Made by a program: the position numbers and the translations under genes. Positions 37,364-48,057 of a stretch of 48,057 bases of DNA are shown here, in pieces; positions within the stretch are counted from its first letter, which is position 1, and each line of letters starts with the position of its first letter. The stretch is from a virus (taxonomy: Duplodnaviria > Heunggongvirae > Uroviricota > Caudoviricetes), in IMG/VR virus record IMGVR_UViG_3300048091_000424. One strand, 5' to 3'. The notes under the pieces were generated by a model. That model saw only the letters and a program-made list of their open reading frames with translations. It had not been told where the DNA came from and did no database searches.

Positions 37364-38440
37364 ATGATTAAGCTCAAAGAAGGTCGTTCCAATTACTACA
37401 AGGCCGATGACACCTACGAGTTCCGTCTCGATCAGGGCGGAAGACGGTGGTATTTCGAGGTTCAGTCGGTGGATGGAGTGGCGCTTGAGGGTGAGATGGC
37501 CAGCGGGCAAGTCCAGGGACGCGAGTGTGACGTGCTCACCATGCGCAGTGGTGATGAGCAATTTCGTTGGCATTTCGGTAATGACAACTTCATCACCGAG
37601 AAGAAGCTGAGAAACATCCTAAAAGCCCTGGAGAAAGACCCAGGCTTTAGAGATCAATTCAGGCGCCCAGCAGAAAAGCTAAAGATGGTGAACACCGCTC
37701 ACCTGTCATCTCTAATCCAGAAAGCATTCGGTGATCACAGCGTGACGTCTGCAGGTACCGAAAAACCCACCGGGCACTCCTGGGAGCTCGCCACCAAGGT
37801 GGTGATCAACCAGAAATTGCCGGACGACTTCATGGCTTTTGCCAGAAAGTACGAGCATCTGAGCCTCGTCAAATCCAGGGGCAAGACCGCGCTAATGGTG
37901 CACTTCCCTCTTGGACTTGCCAGCGAAGCCAACGCCATGTTCTTGAAGATCCTGACTGATTACACTCAGGGTTGCCTGGGAACCCCGAAAGACTACAAGT
38001 TGGATGGTAAAGCGGTTTCTACCCGACTGGCTCGGCCAAGTATCCCGGAAGACTTGTTGAAGCTGATAATGCCCAACGTCGAGGAAAAGGCCGAATCACT
38101 CAAAGGCCCGAGCCATCCAGCTACCGTCAAAAAGATTTTGGATGAAATGAAAGCTGGCCGGGATCGTTTCTCGGGCATGCGCCTGGGAACGCTGAAAGAA
38201 TGCGTCGGCGATGCGGTGATTTACACGTTCGAAGAAGCGTGTGAAGCCGCCAAGAAACACCACCAGAAAAGTTATTTCACCCATACGTTCAAGCCGGATA
38301 ACTACGTCGCACGGTGCATTCGCTGGCACCTGCGCGGGCTTTCCGTAGAGCATGCCGTCGAGAAGGTCGAGCAGGAAAACCGGGCTGCCGAAAACAGCAT
38401 CGCGCTCCGTAGGGGTGAGTCTGTCTATCAGCCGCTCTGA
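37364..38440 (+). CDS. Hypothetical protein
   Basis: 358-aa ORF; no family recognised. Confidence 0.75.
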   Translation: MIKLKEGRSNYYKADDTYEFRLDQGGRRWYFEVQSVDGVALEGEMASGQVQGRECDVLTMRSGDEQFRWHFGNDNFITEKKLRNILKALEKDPGFRDQFRRPAEKLKMVNTAHLSSLIQKAFGDHSVTSAGTEKPTGHSWELATKVVINQKLPDDFMAFARKYEHLSLVKSRGKTALMVHFPLGLASEANAMFLKILTDYTQGCLGTPKDYKLDGKAVSTRLARPSIPEDLLKLIMPNVEEKAESLKGPSHPATVKKILDEMKAGRDRFSGMRLGTLKECVGDAVIYTFEEACEAAKKHHQKSYFTHTFKPDNYVARCIRWHLRGLSVEHAVEKVEQENRAAENSIALRRGESVYQPL

Positions 38441-38529
38441 GCGCTTAATTGTCACACGCCAAAACCCGTATTCGTTTACAAAAATAGCCTGGCTGGGCGC
38501 CCCCCCAGCCTAAATAAAAAGGTAAGTCC

Positions 38530-39858
38530 ATGACACGTTCCGCCCAAATTGCTGCTGCAATACAATACAACCTGGTACCAATGACCGAGAATACCCGTGC
38601 CATCCTGGACAGCGGGCAGGCTGTCACTGGTGAGATGCTGCATGACCTGTACATCAGCTCGCTCGACGACGCGTTCAACCTGGCGTTGCACGGCGCCGAC
38701 AAGGACGCCATCAAAGATTACTTTTCGAGGGTGGTCGAAGTCGACGTGAAACCCGCTGAAGGGGAAGATTTCATGCAGTCGCTGGCGGCCTGGATGAAAT
38801 TGGATCTGTCTCGATCCATTTTCGAAGCCATCGGCGTTAATGCGGGCTTAGTACGCTACCAGGGCAATGATAAAATCGAACCGCTGGATCTTGATCAGCT
38901 CCCCACTGGGCCTGTCATCAGTGTCATGGGCCGGGTAATCAGGGATTCACCTGAAGATCCGATTGAACCTGAGATCCAGGAGGTGGTGAACGCCTGCAAC
39001 AAATACGCACAAATGCTCCCGCTCCTGAAACAAGCGACTTCAAACTTAGTTCTGGAGAATGCAGAAAACGGCACTGCCTTGGACGCAGCGCTGGAGACCT
39101 GGTCTAAGGCTGATGGGATTCTGACCCGCTTCGAAAAATCAGATTCCAACCCAGTGTTAACTGACGATGTGTTCGCCCTCATCATCGAGAAGAACAAGTC
39201 ATTAGCAAAAGGCACGCAGATGATCGACACCGTTGCAAGGACGCTGAAAGCGTCTTCGGACGAAAAACGTCTGCAGATCGCCGCGTCCGTCCTCAAAGCA
39301 GTCGATGGTTTCGACCCTGCCGGTGGTTACGCTCAATCTGGCCTGAAGTTATTCATTGCCCTGCAAAAAACTTACTTGAGTACTGACAACGGTAAGCACC
39401 GCGCCCAAGCACTGAACCTGATGGATGCGTTCCACGAGAAGTACTTCACCACTCCTACTGCCAAAGCCGTTCTTGCCACGATGTATGGCGATGGCTGGGC
39501 GCCGGCCACTGTTCCAGTGTTGACCAATGACATCGTTAAAGCGATGGAAAATGGCGCCAGTCCGAAGGTCTTGTACGATGCCCTCTCGCGCACCCACAAA
39601 CTCAATCCGGCCAATGACCCGGCTATCAACCCGTCTGGCGTACTCCCAACGACGAACCTCGAGGTCGCCGTAAAAATGTCCCCTGGTTATGACTCCCTGG
39701 TGGCCGTGGCGCTCAGCCATTACCTTGGCAAAGATGCCAGCAATCACTCCAGAGTCCAGAACACCATTACGGACACCTGGCAGGATGAAATTCTGGCCAA
39801 GGCCAGGGCAATCCAGCTCACGAACGAAAGCAAGCTCGACGCTGGGTTAACCCTATAA
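38530..39858 (+). CDS. Hypothetical helical protein
   Basis: 442-aa ORF with an AAGGT RBS, followed by a terminator. Confidence 0.8.
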   Translation: MTRSAQIAAAIQYNLVPMTENTRAILDSGQAVTGEMLHDLYISSLDDAFNLALHGADKDAIKDYFSRVVEVDVKPAEGEDFMQSLAAWMKLDLSRSIFEAIGVNAGLVRYQGNDKIEPLDLDQLPTGPVISVMGRVIRDSPEDPIEPEIQEVVNACNKYAQMLPLLKQATSNLVLENAENGTALDAALETWSKADGILTRFEKSDSNPVLTDDVFALIIEKNKSLAKGTQMIDTVARTLKASSDEKRLQIAASVLKAVDGFDPAGGYAQSGLKLFIALQKTYLSTDNGKHRAQALNLMDAFHEKYFTTPTAKAVLATMYGDGWAPATVPVLTNDIVKAMENGASPKVLYDALSRTHKLNPANDPAINPSGVLPTTNLEVAVKMSPGYDSLVAVALSHYLGKDASNHSRVQNTITDTWQDEILAKARAIQLTNESKLDAGLTL

Positions 39859-39878
39859 TCCACCTCGTTGAGAAACAG

Positions 39879-39906
39879 AAAAGGCCGTCATCTGATGGCC
39901 TTTTTT
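39879..39906. terminator. Bidirectional intrinsic terminator
   Basis: AAAAGGCCGTCA-TC-TGATGGCCTTTTTT. Confidence 0.75.
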
Positions 39907-40582
39907 ATTCCCTGGGTTCAAAGCGAGCCCTGTTCCAGGGAGTGGCGACCTTCTCTCTGTGTCGATGCCGCACGACATCCTCAAGACTCCATGGGGAGTG
40001 GATCCTGCTTCATCTCAGATTGTGGCTGTTGCGACGCTCTTTCCAATACTCGCGTGCCGTGGCGGCGCCTTTGTTTAGCACTCCCATGATCTCCTAAAAC
40101 CTTACGGTCGCATCGGCTTGTTTCATCGAGTGCGAAGAAATGACGGTACCGTCTGGCATTCGGAGTTTTACTTCCATTATTTACCCTGCACGTAGAACTT
40201 TTAGGATGTATTGCCGAATTTTGCCTGGTGATGGGAATGCAGACCAACAACTTCATCGAATGCCCGGTGAACAGTCGACCGCAAGAAGCAAAAAAGGCGA
40301 AACCATCACTGGCCTCGCCTTCGTTGCATCCAGAAGCAGCACCCGCTGAGGCATGGAGGAGGAATTGCGGCGCGGTGACCCTTCGGCCCTGGTGCTCTCC
40401 CTCCAAAACGTCCATCACAAGCCAGATCGGTGTCCACGAAAGCAGATTCAGCGACCTGAGCAGCCATTGCTGCCTGGACACCTTCAATGCTAACACGGCC
40501 TTCTTGCTTGGCGCCACCGGCCATGAAGCCACCCCGACGTAGGGTGGCGCGACCAGCCCGGTCACGCCTGCCAGAGCGCACC

Positions 40583-41194
40583 CTACAATTGGACAATCGT
40601 GGCGGTGATTTCAGGTTCAGCAGCGCTGTTCGCTTTAAACTCTTGCATGGCCTTCGTCTTCCAGCCTTCTTTTTGCTTACGCTCTTCGATGTTTTTCTTT
40701 CGGGTTTCCATGAAGTGCTCGGTGATGTCGGCCTCATCCATGTACTCAGGATCCTGGTGGCGATGCACGCTGTAGATCGCGTTCAGCTTACGAACCAAGG
40801 CTGAAGTGATCATGTAGCCAGACAGCGCCCAAGCCGCCAGTTGATACCAGTAGAAGAGATTCCAGTTGGTGATCCATGAGTAATCAAAGCGCTCTGGCCA
40901 ATGCGCGTAGGTGTAGTCGTTGACGGTGACGGAGATCAGCGCGAAAGACAGTACCACCAGTGTTTCCGAGAGCCAGGTTGTCCAGATGCGCTGCGTGGTC
41001 TTATCGAACGCCGGCAGCCCAACAACGATGTTCTCATGCATGACGCGCTTGAACCAATGGGAATTGTCGAGGTGGTTGGCCGCATAACACCAGGTGGCGA
41101 GGACGTTTACAATCGGGATCGGCATCAATAACCCTACGGTCAGAAACGCCTTGAAGCGTCGCACGATAGCCCAAAAGGCCATGAACTTTTTCAT
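40583..41194 (-). CDS. Multi-pass membrane protein
   Basis: Three hydrophobic segments and a charged C-terminal tail. Confidence 0.7.
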   Translation of the reverse strand: MKKFMAFWAIVRRFKAFLTVGLLMPIPIVNVLATWCYAANHLDNSHWFKRVMHENIVVGLPAFDKTTQRIWTTWLSETLVVLSFALISVTVNDYTYAHWPERFDYSWITNWNLFYWYQLAAWALSGYMITSALVRKLNAIYSVHRHQDPEYMDEADITEHFMETRKKNIEERKQKEGWKTKAMQEFKANSAAEPEITATIVQL

Positions 41195-41395
41195 AGTGAA
41201 CAGATACCTGTGTGGTAAGCCCCTACTCCGGACGCTCCATGCGCACGGATGCGGTTGGAACTATAACCACATCGCCACCAGTGTCAATTGAGGCGATATG
41301 TTTACATGGTAAAACTGGAGTGGGAGGCACCAGTGCCCTCCTCTTACGCTCGTTTTCCAAGCCCGCTAAGATTGCTCATCACCAAGGAGAGCAGC

Positions 41396-41626
41396 ATGGC
41401 AAAACAATCAGCAAGCGACCGGCACAGAAGGCTTCTCGCCGGCTGCTGCCCGATTCATGGTATGGGCATGGGACAGGTTGGCCTTTGGCGGCAAAAAGGC
41501 CAAGTCGTGGGTTACCTGGTCGGATGCTGTCGCAGAAACTGCGAGGTGCAAGCCATCCAAGAGCAGGCTGATGGCCCCCTGCAGTTAACGCCGAGGTTCA
41601 GGTATCTGGTGGGGCCCGGCGCATAG
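41396..41626 (+). CDS. Small Cys-rich (possible zinc-binding) protein
   Basis: AAGGAG RBS; CCPIHG...CCRRNC. Confidence 0.55.
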   Translation: MAKQSASDRHRRLLAGCCPIHGMGMGQVGLWRQKGQVVGYLVGCCRRNCEVQAIQEQADGPLQLTPRFRYLVGPGA

Positions 41627-41784
41627 TAAGTGACGCGTGAGCTCCGGTGAAATCGCGCAACGCGTGAGTTGCAAAAAATTGACTGCCTAAAGGTCGGTTG
41701 CAAGGCGAGCCCGTCATGTTCGTTGCCATCTTTTGGATTCAATATTCAATGGTAGGCCTGGTGGAGAGGACGAAACTTGGACAC

Positions 41785-41812
41785 AAAAAAGCCCGAGAAC
41801 GATCTCGGGCTT
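41785..41812 (-). terminator. Intrinsic terminator closing the tRNA-yqeY operon
   Basis: Minus strand GCCCGAGA-TCGT-TCTCGGGC-TTTTTT, just after the YqeY stop codon. Confidence 0.8.
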
Positions 41813-41829
41813 CTTCGTGAAGCTTTTGG

Positions 41830-42237
41830 CTACCCCACCAGATCTTTGGCCACGCGGGAGGCTGTGCCCTTGTCGTACTGGCCAGCATAACGCTTGCCAA
41901 GGTACTTCATTGCCTCACCGATATTGGTCGCGCCACTCAGGCGCAGGGCTTCCCGTAGGGCGTCCTCGCTCATCTCGCTCGGCAGGAATGACTGTAGCTC
42001 CAGGTTCTCGGCTGTCAGTCGGGCATCACCATCGCACAGCTTGATGGTTTCATCGTTGGACTTGATCAGTTTCTTGACCACTGCGACAACTTTATCGTCG
42101 GTGATCTCCAGCCCCTTGCCCTTGGTGAGCGTTTCCAGCTCGCCGACCAGGAGGGTGAGAATCTTGAAACCAATGACCTGGGTCGCGTCCTTTCGCAACT
42201 CAGCCCGTCTGGTTTGTACTGCCTCGAACAAGCTCAT
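41830..42237 (-). CDS. GatB/YqeY domain protein
   Basis: LTLLVGEL...ITDDKVVAVVKKLIKS..ET...E...LQSFLPSEMSED.L...IGEAMKYL...Y.G..D...AS fits free-standing YqeY. Confidence 0.8.
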   Translation of the reverse strand: MSLFEAVQTRRAELRKDATQVIGFKILTLLVGELETLTKGKGLEITDDKVVAVVKKLIKSNDETIKLCDGDARLTAENLELQSFLPSEMSEDALREALRLSGATNIGEAMKYLGKRYAGQYDKGTASRVAKDLVG

Positions 42238-42321: not shown

Positions 42322-42394
42322 TGGAGCGTCCTATGGGTTTCGAACCCATCTCTCTTGCCTGGCAGACAAGGGCGCAACCCTATACCAAGGACGC
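42322..42394 (-). tRNA. tRNA-Gly(GCC), weak D arm
   Basis: 7-bp acceptor GCGTCCT/AGGACGC, U73, CCA, loop CTGCCAG, T loop TTCGAAA. Confidence 0.75.
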
Positions 42395-42401
42395 AAAATT
42401 G

Positions 42402-42476
42402 TGGCGGGCCTGACAGGATTCGAACCTGTGGTGGACGGATCAAAACCGCCTGCCTTACCAACTTGGCTACAGACCT
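42402..42476 (-). tRNA. tRNA-Gln(TTG)
   Basis: Gln-type D arm GCCAAGTTGGTAAGGC, loop TTTTGAT, CCA; A1-C72 mismatch. Confidence 0.9.
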
Positions 42477-42481
42477 ACATC

Positions 42482-42559
42482 TGGGGTGACTAAAGGGAAT
42501 CGAACCCTTGACCTCCGGTGCCACAAACCGGCGCTCTAACCAACTGAGCTATAACCACC
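42482..42559 (-). tRNA. tRNA-His(GTG)
   Basis: G-1:C73 pair, loop TTGTGGC, CCA. Confidence 0.93.
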
Positions 42560-42606
42560 ATTTACTCTTCACGACTTACAGACGGAACCACCTGTAAGTC
42601 ATTGTT

Positions 42607-42680
42607 TGGAAGACCTGCCTGGATTCGAACCAGGGGTGCCGGGATCAAAACCCAGTGCCTTACCGCTTGGCTACAAGTCC
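42607..42680 (-). tRNA. tRNA-Gln(TTG)
   Basis: D arm GCCAAGCGGTAAGGC, loop TTTTGAT, CCA; G1-U72 and U73 are atypical. Confidence 0.85.
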
Positions 42681-42685
42681 ACAAC

Positions 42686-42762
42686 TGAGGGTGTCCGGAG
42701 GGATTCGAACCCCCGCTATAGTGGCAAGGCCACTACGGTTCTGCCGCTAAACTACAGACACC
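42686..42762 (-). pseudogene. His-like aberrant tRNA (7-bp arm with a 5-nt CCTTG loop; 3' end CTCA)
   Basis: 8-bp acceptor GGTGTCTG/CGGACACC and an intact T arm, but no canonical anticodon loop and no encoded CCA. Confidence 0.65.
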
Positions 42763-42810
42763 ATAAACTTTATACTGACTTACAAGAACTGCTCGTAAGT
42801 CATTGAAAAA

Positions 42811-42885
42811 TGGCGGGCCCTGCTGGACTCGAACCAGCGATGGCGGTATCAGAAACCGCTGCCTTACCAACTTGGCTAAGGGCCT
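42811..42885 (-). tRNA. tRNA-Gln(CTG)
   Basis: Loop TTCTGAT, Gln-type D arm, CCA; A1-C72 mismatch. Confidence 0.92.
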
Positions 42886-42890
42886 TCAAA

Positions 42891-42967
42891 TGGTAGGGAG
42901 TGACGGATTCGAACCGGCGACCCTCTGCTTGTAAGGCAGATGCTCTAACCAACTGAGCTAACCCCCT
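42891..42967 (-). tRNA. tRNA-Val(TAC)
   Basis: Loop CTTACAA, full cloverleaf, CCA. Confidence 0.93.
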
Positions 42968-43043
42968 GAAACTGGTAGCGACCCGCCGCTTCGCTACCGT
43001 GCTTGATGCCCTATCAAGCTCCAGAACCCTACAGGTTCCAATG

Positions 43044-43120
43044 TGGTGGGTGGCGTGAGATTTGAACTCTACGACCTTCCGGTTAAGAGCCGGTTGCTCT
43101 ACCAACTGAGCTAGCCACCC
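43044..43120 (-). tRNA. tRNA-Lys(CTT)
   Basis: Loop CTCTTAA, CCA; one bulged base in the T stem. Confidence 0.88.
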
Positions 43121-43137
43121 GTGAAACTTTTTACCGC

Positions 43138-43347
43138 CTAAGCCTTGTTTTCTGCCGCTTCGGTATCGAACATATCGCCGAATATTGCCAAGTGATCTTC
43201 CCTACTCAGCTTTGACATGCATTGCGCCAGCCGCTGATCCATCTGCTGATTCTGTAACATCAGCCTTTCCAGGTCATCCACCTGCACCTCGACCACCGGT
43301 GCCTCTGCCTGTCTTGCTTTCCGTAGAGCAATTCTCAGTCTTAACAT
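43138..43347 (-). CDS. Small hypothetical protein embedded in the tRNA array
   Basis: AGGA RBS, 69 aa, fills the gap between the tRNA-like RNA and tRNA-Lys(CTT). Confidence 0.55.
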   Translation of the reverse strand: MLRLRIALRKARQAEAPVVEVQVDDLERLMLQNQQMDQRLAQCMSKLSREDHLAIFGDMFDTEAAENKA

Positions 43348-43373
43348 GCGTTGATCCTACGGTGTTGCCTTGT

Positions 43374-43609
43374 TGGTGGAGATGACGGGACTTGAACCCG
43401 TGTGGTCTACGACTAAGGGATTTTCGGCCCTCAGCTCAATGCAGGTTTAGAGTACGCTTCCCTTGCTGCTTTTACCCCACCCTGGGGGAGTGATTACCGA
43501 TCCAGGGCCGCTATAGGTGCTTCTGACACATTCCCCTGATTGATTAGTAGGTGGTTTTTACACCTCGGCTTCTAATTTTAGCCGTGCCTTGCCTCTCAGC
43601 CACATCCCC
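43374..43609 (-). ncRNA. 236-nt tRNA-shaped RNA with an alanine-type acceptor and a large structured insert
   Basis: Acceptor GGGGATG/CATCTCC with G3-U70, A73 and CCA; T arm ACGGG-TTCAAGT-CCCGT; D-like arm GCTGAGAGGCAAGGC; about 170 nt in place of the anticodon/variable region. Confidence 0.75.
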
Positions 43610-43656
43610 TTAACTTTCTCGAAGCTAGATTACAATTAAGCTGTAACCTATTGATT

Positions 43657-43731
43657 TGGCGGGCCATGGAGGACTCGAACCCCCACCAACGGATTTGGAA
43701 TCCGGCATGCTGCCATTACAATCAATGACCC
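43657..43731 (-). tRNA. tRNA-Trp(CCA)
   Basis: Loop TTCCAAA, G73, CCA; weak D stem. Confidence 0.82.
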
Positions 43732-43781
43732 GTGAACTGTGGAGATCTCTCTCCTGGTGCTACGTGTTGCTGTATCAAAAG

Positions 43782-43857
<76 letters not shown>

Positions 43858-43862
43858 GCGTG

Positions 43863-43938
43863 TGGTGGGTGGTGCGAGGTTCGAACTCGCGGCCAGTCGA
43901 TTAAAAGTCGACTGCTCTACCAGCTGAGCTAACCACCC
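43863..43938 (-). tRNA. tRNA-Lys(TTT)
   Basis: Loop CTTTTAA, full cloverleaf, CCA. Confidence 0.95.
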
Positions 43939-44065
43939 GAAAATCCTGGCAGTAACGGACTGCCTCCCGTGCTTGATGAACAGCCCCACGCCTCGCTTTC
44001 ATCCTGTTCAAGACTTAACTTGAACCCCTAAATAAGTGTCGTAACACCCTGTTTTATATCGTATT

Positions 44066-44141
44066 TGGTGGAATCAAAGGGGTTCGAACCCTCGACCTCC
44101 TGCTTGCAAGGCAGGCGCTCTCCCAGCTGAGCTATGACCCC
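44066..44141 (-). tRNA. tRNA-Ala(TGC)
   Basis: Loop CTTGCAA, G3-U70, CCA. Confidence 0.95.
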
Positions 44142-44192
44142 GTTTGTTGCCTGGCACCACCGGCCATTGAGACCGCTCTGTGATGCCGTATG

Positions 44193-44277
44193 TGGTGGGC
44201 CGGGAAGGATTTGAACCTTCGAATCCGTCGGAGGCGGGGTTACAACCCGCTTGCTTTAGCCGCTTGCATACCGACCC
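44193..44277 (-). tRNA. tRNA-Tyr(GTA)
   Basis: Loop TTGTAAC, long variable arm, CCA. Confidence 0.92.
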
Positions 44278-44326
44278 AAAACTGCTGATTTCTACTTTAC
44301 CGGGCCACTCTTTTGCCCTTCAAAAA

Positions 44327-44407
44327 TGGTTCCATGACCAGGGTTCGAACCTGGGCCTCCTACCTACTATTTCAAGGCCTGGACTCTACCGACTGAGTTA
44401 TCACGGA
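44327..44407 (-). pseudogene. Phe-like aberrant tRNA (anticodon arm disrupted, about 5 extra nt)
   Basis: Acceptor TCCGTGA/TCATGGA, D arm, T arm and CCA are intact; the middle CAGGCCTTGAAATAGTAGGTAGGAGGC forms no canonical 5-bp/7-nt arm. Confidence 0.6.
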
Positions 44408-44413
44408 ACAATT

Positions 44414-44489
44414 TGGTGCATGTGGACAGGTTCGAACTGCCGGCCTCACCCTTATCAGGGGTGCGCTCTACCAACTGAGCTACACGTGC
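44414..44489 (-). tRNA. tRNA-Ile(GAT)
   Basis: Loop CTGATAA, CCA. Confidence 0.93.
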
Positions 44490-44535
44490 GTGTTTCGTTT
44501 TGGGAGCAAACCGCCTCCCGATACTGCCTACTATA

Positions 44536-44611
44536 TGGTGCTGAAGACTGGCCTTGAACCAGTGACCTCGGGGTTATGAGTCCCGCGCTCTGCCAACTGA
44601 GCTACATCAGC
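44536..44611 (-). tRNA. tRNA-Met or Ile2 (CAT)
   Basis: Loop CTCATAA, paired G1-C72 (so not an initiator), CCA. Met versus lysidine-Ile cannot be resolved by eye. Confidence 0.88.
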
Positions 44612-44612
44612 G

Positions 44613-44689
44613 TGGTCGGGGGCACGTGATTCGAACACGTGACCAATCGGTTAAAAGCCGATTGCTCTATCCAGCTGAGCTAGCCCCCG
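44613..44689 (-). tRNA. tRNA-Lys(TTT)
   Basis: Loop CTTTTAA, full cloverleaf, CCA. Confidence 0.93.
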
Positions 44690-44852
44690 GTAAATCAAAT
44701 TCTTCGCCCCTTTATCGATAAGGGCATCGCCACATACGAAGTGGGTCGTGTCTCAGCTTCTTGACCTGGTCGAAACCTCGGCGTCTGCTGGTCAACTGTG
44801 TACTCAAACTAGTGTTATAACAACTAACTGCAACTTCTGAGTACGACTTTAT

Positions 44853-44936
44853 TGGTGGGGAAGGAAGGATTCGAACCTTCGAAAAATTAATATCCGATTT
44901 ACAGTCAGACGGCTTTGGCCACTCACCTACTTCCCC
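44853..44936 (-). tRNA. tRNA-Tyr(GTA)
   Basis: Loop CTGTAAA, AT-rich long variable arm, CCA. Confidence 0.92.
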
Positions 44937-44981
44937 GATAAACATTTAAGCGATAACACTTACAAACACTTGCTGAAGACC

Positions 44982-45010
44982 ATTAAATATTGTGTTTTTA
45001 TCGATGTCAA
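44982..45010 (-). promoter_or_regulatory. Internal sigma70-type promoter in the tRNA array
   Basis: TTGACA (45010..45005), N17, TTTAAT (44987..44982), with an AT-rich upstream tract. Confidence 0.7.
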
Positions 45011-45043
45011 CAACTTATTTTCAACTATTAAAACATTAAAATC

Positions 45044-45119
45044 TGGAGATAACGGCGGGACTTGAACCCGCGTAAAAATGATTTGCAATCATTTGCCTAA
45101 CCAACTCAGCCACGTCACC
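45044..45119 (-). tRNA. tRNA-Cys(GCA)
   Basis: Loop TTGCAAA, U73, CCA. Confidence 0.93.
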
Positions 45120-45165
45120 AGAACTAATAGCTACTCAATTTAAACTGCTTGAGTTGCTTTGAAAT

Positions 45166-45241
45166 TGGCTCCCACACCTGGACTCGAACCAGGGACACCG
45201 TGATTAACAGTCACGTACTCTACCAACTGAGCTATATGGGA
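45166..45241 (-). tRNA. tRNA-Asn(GTT)
   Basis: U1-A72, G73, loop CTGTTAA, CCA. Confidence 0.95.
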
Positions 45242-45299
45242 TCTAAACTTTTGAAACCCTTGTAAACTCTGCCTTCCACGCTTTTGAAGGTCTTAAATT

Positions 45300-45375
45300 T
45301 GGCTCCCCCGCCTGGACTCGAACCAGAGACCTGATGATTAACAGTCAACTGCTCTACCAACTGAGCTACAAGGGA
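45300..45375 (-). tRNA. tRNA-Asn(GTT)
   Basis: U1-A72, G73, loop CTGTTAA, CCA. Confidence 0.93.
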
Positions 45376-45424
45376 ATTAAACTTTTACTCGTTCTGCCTT
45401 CCATGCTTTCGAAGGACTTAAAAT

Positions 45425-45500
45425 TGGTGCAGCGAACTGGGATCGAACCAGTGACCAACGGGCTTTCAACTCGTCACTCTACCAACTGAGTTACCGCTGC
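45425..45500 (-). tRNA. tRNA-Phe(GAA), first gene of the array
   Basis: Loop TTGAAAG, A73, CCA. Confidence 0.9.
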
Positions 45501-45526
45501 AATGTGCCGCTTAGTTTCTCCGAGGC

Positions 45527-45631
45527 AAACAAAAACCCCGGAGCTTTTGAAGGCTCCGGGGTTTTGAGTTCCCGTTTTCTTGAGCCTTCACTTGCTTTCG
45601 CTAGTGTAGGCTCCAAACAGGCTACCTACAC
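45527..45631 (-). promoter_or_regulatory. Transcription attenuator (terminator plus antiterminator) upstream of the tRNA array
   Basis: Terminator CCCCGGAGC-CTTCAAAA-GCTCCGGGG-TTTTTGTTT (45561..45527). TGAAGGCTC (45590..45582) is the exact complement of GAGCCTTCA (45556..45548) in the terminator. Further pairings overlap the leader stop codon. Confidence 0.75.
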
Positions 45632-45703
45632 GTGGCGCACACACCACTTGGCAAAATAGTTATTCGCCATCTGTTTCGCTTGGTGGTTAATGTGTGCGTT
45701 CAT
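45626..45703 (-). CDS. 25-aa leader peptide MNAHINHQAKQMANNYFAKWCVRHV
   Basis: GGAG RBS 9 nt before ATG, immediately after the promoter; the stop codon lies inside attenuator stem 1. Below the ORF-track length cut-off. Confidence 0.75.
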   Translation of the reverse strand: MNAHINHQAKQMANNYFAKWCVRHV

Positions 45704-45730
45704 GTTCGGTATCTCCGTTGAGTTGATTTA

Positions 45731-45759
45731 ATTAAATACAACCTTCTAAACCGTGTCAA
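45731..45759 (-). promoter_or_regulatory. Sigma70-type promoter of the leader/tRNA operon
   Basis: TTGACA (45759..45754), N17, TTTAAT (45736..45731), with an A/T UP-like tract upstream. Confidence 0.8.
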
Positions 45760-45839
45760 CAACATTTTTTAAAAAAGTTGAAATTATTTTTAGAGGGGCT
45801 TGGCTAATCGAGGAGCGGCCTCTCCAGATAGTCTTATTA

Positions 45840-46244
45840 CTAAGGGCTTGGTGACGACTCTTCAGCAGCTTCGTATTTTTGCCGAAGTCTGTCAGCACTC
45901 ATCCAGGCGCAATCCTCAAACCCCTGGGTGAACTCATAACCTCTACGCTTGAGTGCATCCTTTAACAGCGGGCTGATAATCGACTGAACGAACACAGATA
46001 ACCCATGCTGGCTGGAAACCCGTTCTGCGTGATCCAAGAATTGGCGAAATACGCCCTGCCCTTTATGCCTGTCATCAACCTCAACGTCGGCGATGTCGAG
46101 GGTACGACCAACAGTAGATCCCATAAACCGAGTGGTAAGGCGAACATACACCTTCAGTGGGCCCATGGAGAGTTTCTTGCGAGCAACTTGCTTTGCCGCG
46201 TTGTCACGGATGAAATGATCGAGCTCTTGAAACGAGGTGCTCAT
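45840..46244 (-). CDS. GNAT-family acetyltransferase-like protein with EESSPSP tail
   Basis: LDIADVEVDDRHKGQGVFRQFL...L..ALKRRGY (acetyl-CoA binding motif A); start placed at MSTSF. Confidence 0.65.
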   Translation of the reverse strand: MSTSFQELDHFIRDNAAKQVARKKLSMGPLKVYVRLTTRFMGSTVGRTLDIADVEVDDRHKGQGVFRQFLDHAERVSSQHGLSVFVQSIISPLLKDALKRRGYEFTQGFEDCAWMSADRLRQKYEAAEESSPSP

Positions 46245-46391
46245 CGCCGTTTCCCTATCCTTAATCTCGTCATTATGCGCGACCGTCCATGCTGGGCGCC
46301 AGTGAAACGGATAGTGGCGGTATTTGGATACCCATTGCGCCTCTGACATACTGGTACTACTACGTAAGCTAGCGCAAGAGGTCACCGCTCA

Positions 46392-47180
46392 ATGTTTACC
46401 AGGATCCCCGGCGTTCCCCTGTTCAGGCGCCTGGCAGCCAACACCCGTGGCCGCGACTTTATCGTGGCCGACGTGCATGGTTGCTACACCCTGCTGCAGA
46501 GACTTCTCGACAAAGTGAGCTTCGATCCCACCAAGGATCGCCTCATTATTGCCGGCGACCTCATAGACCGAGGGCCTGAATCCATCAAAGCCCTGGACTG
46601 GATTTACAAACCCTGGGTGCACGTCGTTGCGGGCAACCACGACCTCATGTTGCTGGTAGCCGCATACAAGGGTGGCGATGAGTTTCATGAGGAGCATGGA
46701 GGCGAATGGTTTGTTCCTGTGATGCGGGAGCAACCTGATCTCGCTATGGAATTTGTTCAGGTATTTGAAGGGCTGCCCATCGCCCTTGAGGTCGAGTGCC
46801 TGGATGGCCGGCGATTTGGCATTGTCCATGCCGAATGCCCGCATTTCGACTGGAACGATTTTACGCACGCCTTGGAGCATGAGCAGAATCCGGCAAGGTT
46901 GGATAATATTGTTTGTGCTGCAACGCAGATGCGCACCCGAGACGAGCTCAAAGACACCACGTGCGTCACCGGGATCGACACTGTTTTCGTTGGCCACTCG
47001 CTGATGGATCAAACCCAGCTTCTGGGTAACACCCTGTACATCGACACCTGGGCATCTTCCGATAAAGGTCGACTTACGCTCATGCAGATGGATACGCGCC
47101 AGGAGTGGACACTGTCCCGTCCAGAACTGCGAGCCATGCGCCTCCGCGAGCAGGAATCAGCCAACAGCTTCGGCCCATAA
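46392..47180 (+). CDS. Serine/threonine protein phosphatase (PphA/lambda NinI-like metallophosphoesterase)
   Basis: ADVHG, GDLIDRG, GNHD, HAE and GHS metal-binding motifs, ...YIDT. Confidence 0.88.
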   Translation: MFTRIPGVPLFRRLAANTRGRDFIVADVHGCYTLLQRLLDKVSFDPTKDRLIIAGDLIDRGPESIKALDWIYKPWVHVVAGNHDLMLLVAAYKGGDEFHEEHGGEWFVPVMREQPDLAMEFVQVFEGLPIALEVECLDGRRFGIVHAECPHFDWNDFTHALEHEQNPARLDNIVCAATQMRTRDELKDTTCVTGIDTVFVGHSLMDQTQLLGNTLYIDTWASSDKGRLTLMQMDTRQEWTLSRPELRAMRLREQESANSFGP

Positions 47181-47240
47181 TTAGCAAGAATTGCCTGGCG
47201 GTGTCCGCCACAGGTACTGTCAGGTAAAGAGAGGATCACA

Positions 47241-48057
47241 ATGGCCGCCAACATTTCAGCCCTTCATCAACAGTTCATCCAGGGTTTTCAGCAGTATGGT
47301 TCGGATTACGCCCCGGACTTCCCGGAAATGTTCGATCATGGGGCCGTCTACCTTGATGCGGGCGGTATCTGCCAGCTGCCTTCAGCTAAATGGGTGCCCG
47401 CCGTCACTGCCGTCATGGTTGGAATGTCGCCCCATGTTGTTGGTCGCCTGTTCCAGCATTATGGCGTGAGGCCTGACGATTTTAAGCAGATCTACTACAA
47501 CCGCACGTGGGGCGCTCCTGGAGAAGAGGTGCCTGAAGGGTACAACCTTGCCAAAGGTATTCTGGAAGGCTTTGAGACGGTGCAGCTGCACCACTACCCT
47601 CTTGGTCAGGAATTGAATTCTGTCGTCCAATTTGCGCTGTTGAGCAGCCAACTCAAGGAGAACTGGGCGATCACCAAGATTCAGGCGCTCAGTCGCGCCT
47701 TCGACCAGGGAACAACTACCCCTGAAGATTTTTTTGACCAAGAAAACACCGAGCTCTTCGTTAACAGCTCCAATGTACCTACGCTTCCCAATCACAGCGT
47801 GATGGATTTTATCTCACGAAGTGGTCTACTCACCCCGGAGGTGGCCAGAAAGAAACTTTTCCGCCACGAAGCCTGGGAAACAATGCTCGTCGATTGGCAT
47901 ACGCTCAATAACGAGCGCTGGCTGCCTGTTTTTGAGTTTTGCATCAAAAACCTGGCCGGCGAACCACGAAAGGCGATGATCAGAGCCTTGCATTCCCTCG
48001 TTCCGAACGATGTCACCGACAATCAAAGCGTCGGCTATGTCTACCAAGAACTGATGG
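47241..48057 (+). CDS. Hypothetical protein, truncated by the window end
   Basis: GAGGA RBS and ATG 47241 (MAANISALHQQF...); the frame stays open to 48057, so it is absent from the ORF track. Confidence 0.7.
   Translation, partial: MAANISALHQQFIQGFQQYGSDYAPDFPEMFDHGAVYLDAGGICQLPSAKWVPAVTAVMVGMSPHVVGRLFQHYGVRPDDFKQIYYNRTWGAPGEEVPEGYNLAKGILEGFETVQLHHYPLGQELNSVVQFALLSSQLKENWAITKIQALSRAFDQGTTTPEDFFDQENTELFVNSSNVPTLPNHSVMDFISRSGLLTPEVARKKLFRHEAWETMLVDWHTLNNERWLPVFEFCIKNLAGEPRKAMIRALHSLVPNDVTDNQSVGYVYQELM

Follow-up and report, generated by a model that had tools for sequence, protein, structure and literature searches.

In a 48,057-nt stretch of DNA catalogued as IMG/VR virus record IMGVR_UViG_3300048091_000424 (hereafter the window), an array of 21 transfer RNA (tRNA) genes lies on the minus strand behind a predicted promoter, a short leader open reading frame (ORF), a structured RNA of about 65 nt and an intrinsic terminator (Table 1). 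We consider it probable that this element is a ribosome-mediated (leader-peptide) transcription attenuator gating a plasmid tRNA operon. The evidence consists of the anatomy of the locus, its conservation, the match between leader codons and array anticodons, the covariation of both alternative folds, and the occurrence of leader RNA in RNA libraries. Every feature of a leader-peptide attenuator that can be looked for in sequence is present, namely an ORF with a Shine-Dalgarno (SD) sequence between promoter and genes, a terminator before the first gene, an antiterminator that can be masked, and a leader enriched in codons that relate to the product of the genes behind it. The interpretation of the leader given in the initial annotation, that of a candidate sensor of the tRNA pool, is supported.

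Leader codons, array anticodons and their conservation

The codons and anticodons on which this interpretation was built are correct. The reverse complement of 45626-45703 gives the same 25 codons followed by TAG, and ARAGORN places 21 minus-strand tRNAs at 42322-45500 with the 16 anticodon types originally listed. Under standard wobble, the array can read 24 of the 25 leader codons (23 of 24 when the start codon is left aside), the sole exception being CGC, which is the third codon from the leader end. Conversely, 15 of the 16 anticodon types find a cognate codon in the leader, the exception being Gly-GCC. The match extends to the isoacceptor pairs, as CAA/CAG, AAA/AAG and GCC versus GCA/GCG are all found in the leader.

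The initial annotation had left this match to be quantified against background and by shuffling, and it beats chance in both cases. Array-readable codons make up 49.1% of the long ORFs of the window (binomial P = 1e-6 for the leader), and among the 109 ATG-initiated ORFs of 20-30 codons in the window the leader scores 0.96, with the runner-up at 0.68. In 110,293 stop-free mononucleotide shuffles of the leader, the highest number of readable codons was 21/24, below the 23 of the leader itself, while random 24-codon draws following local codon usage covered at least 14 anticodon types in 0.26% of cases. Base composition as the source of the match is ruled out by the shuffles and by the leaders of two other array classes described below (classes 2 and 3). 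The codon match is real and lies far beyond chance.

The region matches Pseudomonas megaplasmids of ~1 Mb, which form a family of conjugative type. Identity is 99% for a P. serbica plasmid (genome G001), 91% for P. silesiensis pPL1, and 70-75% for pBASL58 (Pseudomonas sp. Leaf58), pMPPla107 (P. amygdali pv. lachrymans) and the FeN3W plasmid; further matches were found in a second genome (G240) and in five metagenome contigs. Among 401 sampled genomes of the genus, two had a match, both on ~1-Mb contigs. No homologue was found among phage records (at blastn level) or in IMG/VR. A genome search with the pattern AGCGAAAGC..CCCCGGAGCC returned mostly chance matches, the real ones being only L079 (the P. 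serbica plasmid) and L115; L125 from the same search is an unrelated array. Alteromonas and Rhizobium plasmids were matched only through tRNA-Phe and carry small tRNA clusters without a comparable leader, and a Diaphorobacter match proved to be a look-alike terminator only.

Conservation of the ORF, on which the proposal of a translated leader depended, extends to 11 distinct homologous loci (class 1). All 11 versions keep the SD sequence, the ATG and a length of 25-28 codons, with the stop codon at the same structural position (inside segment S1, see below), and the length differences are in-frame only (3, 6 or 9 nt). Part of the peptide is conserved (MNAH..., NYFA.W) and the rest drifts (e.g., MNAHHFNQQITKQAKNYFAGWCVSVR; MNAQTSIHQISKQGNNYFAVWCASVR; MNAHNFHQYCICNQQAKINFAKWYVRVS), with amino-acid replacements that remain within the set of the downstream array. 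In the 11 homologues, 217/230 codons in positions 2 to n-4 are readable by the locus's own array, as compared to 24/44, about background, in the final four. Three of the 13 exceptions in positions 2 to n-4 are GCT codons, which an Ala tRNA with a modified U34 would read, and four are TGG codons at loci where ARAGORN found no Trp tRNA. We propose that the sensor part of the leader comprises codons 2 to about 21.

Leader composition was expected to track array content, and it does so within class 1. For Thr, Gly and Met, the presence of codons in the leader agrees with that of the corresponding tRNA (Thr-GGT, Gly-GCC, CAT) in the array for 29 of 33 locus-by-residue cells (both/array only/leader only/neither: Thr 7/1/1/2, Gly 6/1/0/4, Met 3/1/0/7), which amounts to a trend and not a test, the loci being related. 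As a separate observation, a leader has internal ATG codons only where the class-1 array of its lineage carries the CAT tRNA. The CAT tRNA of the window (44536-44611, minus) was considered as an initiator-like tRNA, which is ruled out by its closed 1:72 pair (G-C).

Three array classes, each with its own leader

It had also been predicted that any further array on this replicon, carrying tRNAs absent from the first, would have its own leader enriched in the corresponding residues. Such arrays exist, with Ser/Thr/Pro/Leu/Met and with Glu/Asp/Arg tRNAs, behind leaders rich in those residues. Five plasmids were compared, namely pMPPla107, pBASL58, FeN3W, the P. serbica plasmid (G001) and that of G240. 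An Rfam tRNA search of three complete plasmids gave 44-56 tRNA genes each, distributed over three large arrays and small clusters, and in all five plasmids the three large arrays each stand behind their own promoter, leader and terminator.

Class-1 arrays serve F/N/C/Y/K/I/A/W/V/Q/H. Class-2 arrays hold Ser-GGA/GCT/TGA/CGA, Thr-CGT/TGT, Pro-TGG/GGG, Leu-CAG/GAG/TAG, CAT, Gly-TCC and Arg-CCT/TCT, and are preceded by a TTGACA-type promoter, an SD sequence, a leader and a terminator. The class-2 leader reads MNTLSLSSSMPTPSLMAS in pMPPla107 and G240, MNMPSMPSSLTMTLPSPMA in pBASL58, MSISSSLPRSTRLMPSQA in FeN3W and MSSISSLTSLTPSSPAD in the P. serbica plasmid. Only the FeN3W plasmid has Arg-TCT in its class-2 array, and its leader contains AGA; the Leu codons of class-2 leaders are CTN only. 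ATA is also present in the class-2 leaders of two plasmids, a codon that a lysidine-modified CAT tRNA would read.

Class-3 arrays consist of Glu-TTC/CTC, Asp-GTC and Arg-ACG/TCG/GCG tRNAs, with leaders such as MNTFAFERFDERREDRDDRPCACI, MNTFAQERFAERRDDRDDRTCAFV and MTIITNDIRVTDVREEREDRSCALG. In three plasmids the class-3 leader-terminator units are doubled in tandem, suggesting a two-gate attenuator. Such tandem D/E/R-rich leaders were seen before the Glu/Asp/Arg arrays of L155 (G001:C1:68000-72600, minus), L136 (pMPPla107) and L157 (G240), an example pair being MTTFTQRDDARQQDERPDICSRDERSVKTF then MATYTNFADRTDRDERRDERECLTV.

Pooled over the five plasmids, the fractions of class-1 leader codons readable by arrays 1, 2 and 3 are 0.88, 0.06 and 0.04, respectively. 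The corresponding values are 0.11, 0.81 and 0.01 for class-2 leaders and 0.35, 0.07 and 0.49 for class-3 leaders. Enrichment in own-array codons was observed in 18/18 leaders (P from 5e-3 to 3e-8, with backgrounds of 0.18-0.49).

Leader control is not universal among the plasmid tRNAs. Small Leu-TAA/Leu-CAA clusters, which also hold Asn or CAT, lack a leader ORF and follow a TTGACA promoter at a distance of about 30 nt (L139, L142; L155 minus ~847-1100).

We are inclined to think, with slightly better than even confidence, that ~1-Mb megaplasmids of the pMPPla107 type run a modular homeostat of tRNA supply. It would consist of three tRNA operons, each autoregulated by a leader that mirrors its codons, some of them in tandem, and would top up the tRNA sets that become limiting in a new host or after the action of tRNA-cleaving toxins or defence nucleases. 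Cleavage by anticodon nucleases as the trigger, which the initial annotation had raised, finds no specific support in these data.

Alternative folds and the proposed switch

The RNA of the window element folds far better than its shuffles (z = -6.3), and four alternating helices can be written, S1:S2, S2:S3, S3:S4 and S4:S5, the last being the terminator. S1 (GUGUAGG) pairs with CCUACAC of S2; S2 (GAGCCUACAC) pairs with S3 (GUGAAGGCUC) in a helix capped by a GAAA loop; and S3 (UGAAGGCUC) pairs with S4 (GAGCCUUCA), which corresponds to the 3' half of the terminator 5' arm plus the loop. In the 11-sequence class-1 alignment, S1:S2 is 93% paired with compensatory changes in 3/7 pairs, and S3:S4 (9 bp in the window) is 92% paired with compensatory changes in 3 pairs. 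Taken jointly, these two helices are 92% paired with six compensatory pairs, as compared to 24-45% when the partners are slid by 1-3 columns. S2:S3 is 86% paired (91% together with the terminator), and the terminator stem is invariant across the 11 homologues.

The layout is the same in class 2, where S1 follows directly after the stop codon, S3 (GUCCGGG) pairs with S4 (CCCGGAC) and the antiterminator state is 95% paired with two compensatory pairs. It was also recognized by inspection in class 3, where the stop UAG pairs with CUA in the S2:S3 hairpin loop. In the minimum free energy (MFE) fold of the window, the start-codon region and early codons pair with S1; a conserved additional S0 layer or pause hairpin was considered on this ground and rejected, as the pairing is not conserved (65% paired, no covariation). 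An Rfam scan of 45513-45733 at E <= 1 revealed no T-box or other cis-regulatory family; the only match on the leader region, SNORA14 (E = 0.09), is a chance match.

We propose that transcription starts from a sigma-70-type promoter and that a ribosome loads on the 25-codon leader. The RNA could then adopt one of two states, either S2:S3 with the terminator S4:S5, or S1:S2 with the antiterminator S3:S4, which would occupy the terminator 5' arm. An undelayed ribosome reaching the stop codon would cover S1, so that S2:S3 and the terminator form and transcription stops some 30 nt short of the first tRNA gene. If the ribosome stalled at any of the ~20 upstream codons, the cognate aminoacyl-tRNA being scarce, S1 would remain free and take S2, S3 would take S4, and RNA polymerase would read into the array. 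The choice between the two states would be kinetic, as in trp. Since the array's own tRNAs read the sensor codons, isoacceptor pairs included, the outcome would be a negative feedback that adjusts the supply of these tRNAs to demand. The Ser/Thr/Pro/Leu/Met and Glu/Asp/Arg arrays of the replicon family would be served by the same design with other leaders. The non-matching codons (CGC here; AGC, TCT, CGG and CCC elsewhere) gather at the leader end, as would be expected because a ribosome with its A site within ~4 codons of the stop still covers S1.

Two soil metatranscriptomes contain contigs of a 98.6%-identical relative, which cover 45494-45710 (from just 5' of the ATG into tRNA-Phe) and 45532-45686 (one end lying inside the terminator U tract). 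In the same runs, the flanking coding DNA had zero cover over 38100-42083 and at most 0.66 in one bin over 45736-48057. These findings suggest that the leader region exists as RNA, in both terminated and read-through forms. The relative differs at two positions within the ORF, and both changes are synonymous.

Several points weigh against an attenuator that senses its own tRNA set. That the leader is translated, in which direction the switch works and what signal it answers to are inferences. On the codon side, TGG occurs in the leaders of four arrays in which no Trp tRNA was detected, matching tRNAs are missing for Thr and Ile codons of the P. silesiensis leader, the pMPPla107 leader has two Ser codons in its sensor part, and half of the class-3 leader codons are not Glu/Asp/Arg. 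Moreover, the homologues are related and the counts overstate their independence, the independent units being essentially three leader classes and a few lineage-specific changes. The metatranscriptome contigs are low-depth assemblies (depth 5-6.5) from which ends and strand are not definable. Regarding the folds, equilibrium folding keeps the terminator whichever region a model ribosome masks, and transcripts ending before S5 gave folds that did not separate two ribosome positions. In the window, S2:S3 is thermodynamically stronger than S1:S2, and strand displacement could blunt the switch. As equilibrium folds did not discriminate the states, the switch rests on kinetic reasoning and covariation.

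Given that stalling reports the availability of aminoacyl-tRNA, the same device might respond to general translation stress or amino-acid starvation and not to the supply of specific tRNAs; sequence alone cannot separate a shortage of tRNA from a shortage of amino acid or from slowing induced by a drug. There is a documented case of a plasmid tRNA array induced by translational stress, the megaplasmid L-array (trn operon) of Anabaena PCC 7120, which is induced when translation is impaired (PMC8421152, PMC10272220) and resembles the present one in being long, plasmid-borne and conditionally expressed. However, the Anabaena array is controlled at its promoter, where direct repeats are bound by the repressor TrcR, and neither PMC8421152 nor PMC10272220 mentions a leader, a terminator or attenuation. 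Amino-acid starvation, moreover, is not relieved by extra tRNA, and a general sensor would have no need of three leaders, each limited to the codons of its own array down to isoacceptors. We therefore regard a general stress signal as unlikely.

A second alternative would reverse the polarity, in that efficient leader translation would lead to read-through and stalling to termination, the arrays being made only under healthy translation. The equilibrium folds did not resolve polarity. Nevertheless, S1 includes the stop codon in class 1 and directly follows it in class 2, so that a terminating ribosome must free S2 for S3, leaving S4 to the terminator. Both S1:S2 and S3:S4 are backed by compensatory changes, the non-matching codons are exactly where stalling could not free S1, and a codon-matched leader would be without obvious use under this polarity, which makes it very improbable.

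Least credible of all is a stand-alone small-peptide gene with its own terminator, resembling the independently transcribed array by chance or shared base composition: small ORFs are common and this peptide is partly conserved, but the gap between the terminator and tRNA-Phe (about 30 nt) leaves no room for a second promoter, composition-preserving shuffles never attain the match, non-homologous leaders of two other arrays match their own arrays, replacements stay confined to the array's set despite sequence drift, and Rfam and the literature offer no other identity.

Comparison with known systems, and further features of the locus

In enterobacteria, leader-peptide attenuators control amino-acid biosynthetic operons (trpL, hisL, pheL, leuL, thrL, ilvL/ivbL). 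The tRNA-array attenuator proposed here shares with the trpL type a promoter-proximal short ORF with an SD sequence, terminator and antiterminator hairpins that exclude each other, an intrinsic terminator ahead of the first structural gene, and the principle that slow decoding of regulatory codons would lead to read-through. The ilv and thr leaders are already multivalent, mixing two or three amino acids. Nonetheless, the regulated genes are tRNAs and not enzymes, and the sensor codons sample 12-15 anticodon types about once or twice each, whereas those of the trpL type are runs of one to three amino acids. The fold also has an additional alternating layer (S1 to S5), and its first segment, S1, holds the stop codon, owing to which a stall nearly anywhere in the ORF should count. 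In addition, the output would restore the very molecule that is sensed.

The pheM leader of Escherichia coli attenuates pheST, the Phe-tRNA synthetase operon. It is comparable in that a leader peptide controls a gene of the translation apparatus according to aminoacyl-tRNA availability, but it senses a single amino acid and controls the making of a protein, where the present target is a tRNA array. T-box riboswitches of Gram-positive aminoacyl-tRNA synthetase and amino-acid genes bind uncharged tRNA directly via a specifier codon, with no translated leader. They likewise sense tRNA status and switch between terminator and antiterminator; here, in contrast, the leader is an ORF and the Rfam scan gave no T-box match.

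The control of bacterial tRNA genes is generally considered to act at the promoter, through growth rate and the stringent response, with repressors as a rare case. The initial annotation knew of no leader-peptide attenuator of a tRNA array, and our full-text literature searches likewise found none controlling tRNA genes. A study of pMPPla107 and pBASL58 only counted their tRNAs and speculated on tRNA depletion and codon usage (PMC6482414), and tRNA genes go unmentioned in a survey of premature terminators (PMC2965389). The element is set apart from known attenuators by the tRNA-operon target, the one-of-each codon mirror of the array and the first segment that contains the stop codon.

If this reading is true, tRNA supply would be tied directly to demand, through translation of a leader that probes how fast the codons of the downstream tRNAs are decoded. 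This would account for how very large plasmids can hold dozens of tRNA genes and avoid the cost of expressing these constitutively, and for their adaptation to hosts that differ in tRNA pools. From the three leaders, three separate induction spectra are predicted, so that it can be tested whether tRNAs on mobile elements compensate for codon usage or replace tRNAs that were cleaved or depleted. Such leaders would also represent a compact natural design for multi-codon biosensors.

The promoter is proposed, from its sequence, to be a strong one of the sigma-70 type, and the pattern TTGAC(A/G)-17-T(T/G)TAAT is kept in 5/5 aligned sequences. The conserved -10 element of class-1 promoters, T(T/G)TAAT, lies behind an A/T-rich tract and is without the usual A at position 2. 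A consensus scan, which demands A at that position, did not call the promoter, nor did it call the terminator, whose U tract is interrupted.

Table 1. Positions of the leader region and tRNA array in the window
Feature	Position	Strand	Basis or remark
A/T-rich tract, UP-element-like	45760..45790	-	sequence; A/T-richness kept in aligned homologues; putative function
Promoter (predicted)	45731..45759	-	-35 TTGACA 45759..45754; 17-nt spacer; -10 TTTAAT 45736..45731
Transcription start (predicted)	near 45724	-	
Shine-Dalgarno GGAG	45713..45716	-	9 nt 5' of ATG; GAG invariant in 11 homologues
Leader ORF MNAHINHQAKQMANNYFAKWCVRHV, 25 codons + TAG	45626..45703	-	ATG at 45703; TAG ends at 45626
Segment S1, GTGTAGG	45625..45631	-	last sense codon + stop codon + 1 nt; partner S2
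Segment S2 GAGCCTACAC	45604..45613	-	partner S1 (via CCTACAC) or S3
GAAA-capped hairpin top + segment S3 GTGAAGGCTC	45582..45603	-	partner S2 or S4; MFE fold
Segment S4 GAGCCTTCA	45556..45548	-	part of terminator 5' arm + loop; complementary to S3 (antiterminator)
Intrinsic terminator CCCCGGAGCC / loop / GCTCCGGGG + U5	45531..45561	-	GC-rich, 9-10 bp stem
Array of 21 tRNA genes	42322..45500	-	ARAGORN, Rfam

The array reads, in order, Phe Asn Asn Cys Tyr Lys CAT Ile Tyr Ala Lys Ala Trp Lys Val Gln Lys Gln His Gln Gly, and also holds one degenerate tRNA-like and one transfer-messenger RNA (tmRNA)-like element. The former (44330-44407, minus) scores 41.2 bits with the Rfam tRNA model; ARAGORN matches it only when the threshold is relaxed (anticodon AAT, weak D arm), and it probably represents a member of the array that has decayed. 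The latter, a tmRNA-like or tRNA-shaped RNA at 43374-43609 (minus), scores 28.6 bits (E = 6.8e-9) with the Rfam tmRNA model, which is below the gathering score of 47. Positions 43370-43599 are covered by a contig from a soil metatranscriptome, whereas no cover was seen on the protein-coding DNA that flanks the array.

Directly 3' of the class-1 array, both pBASL58 (L002 7288-7701) and pMPPla107 (L003 7155-7568) carry a gene with a GatB/YqeY domain; the plasmid groups translation-maintenance functions together.
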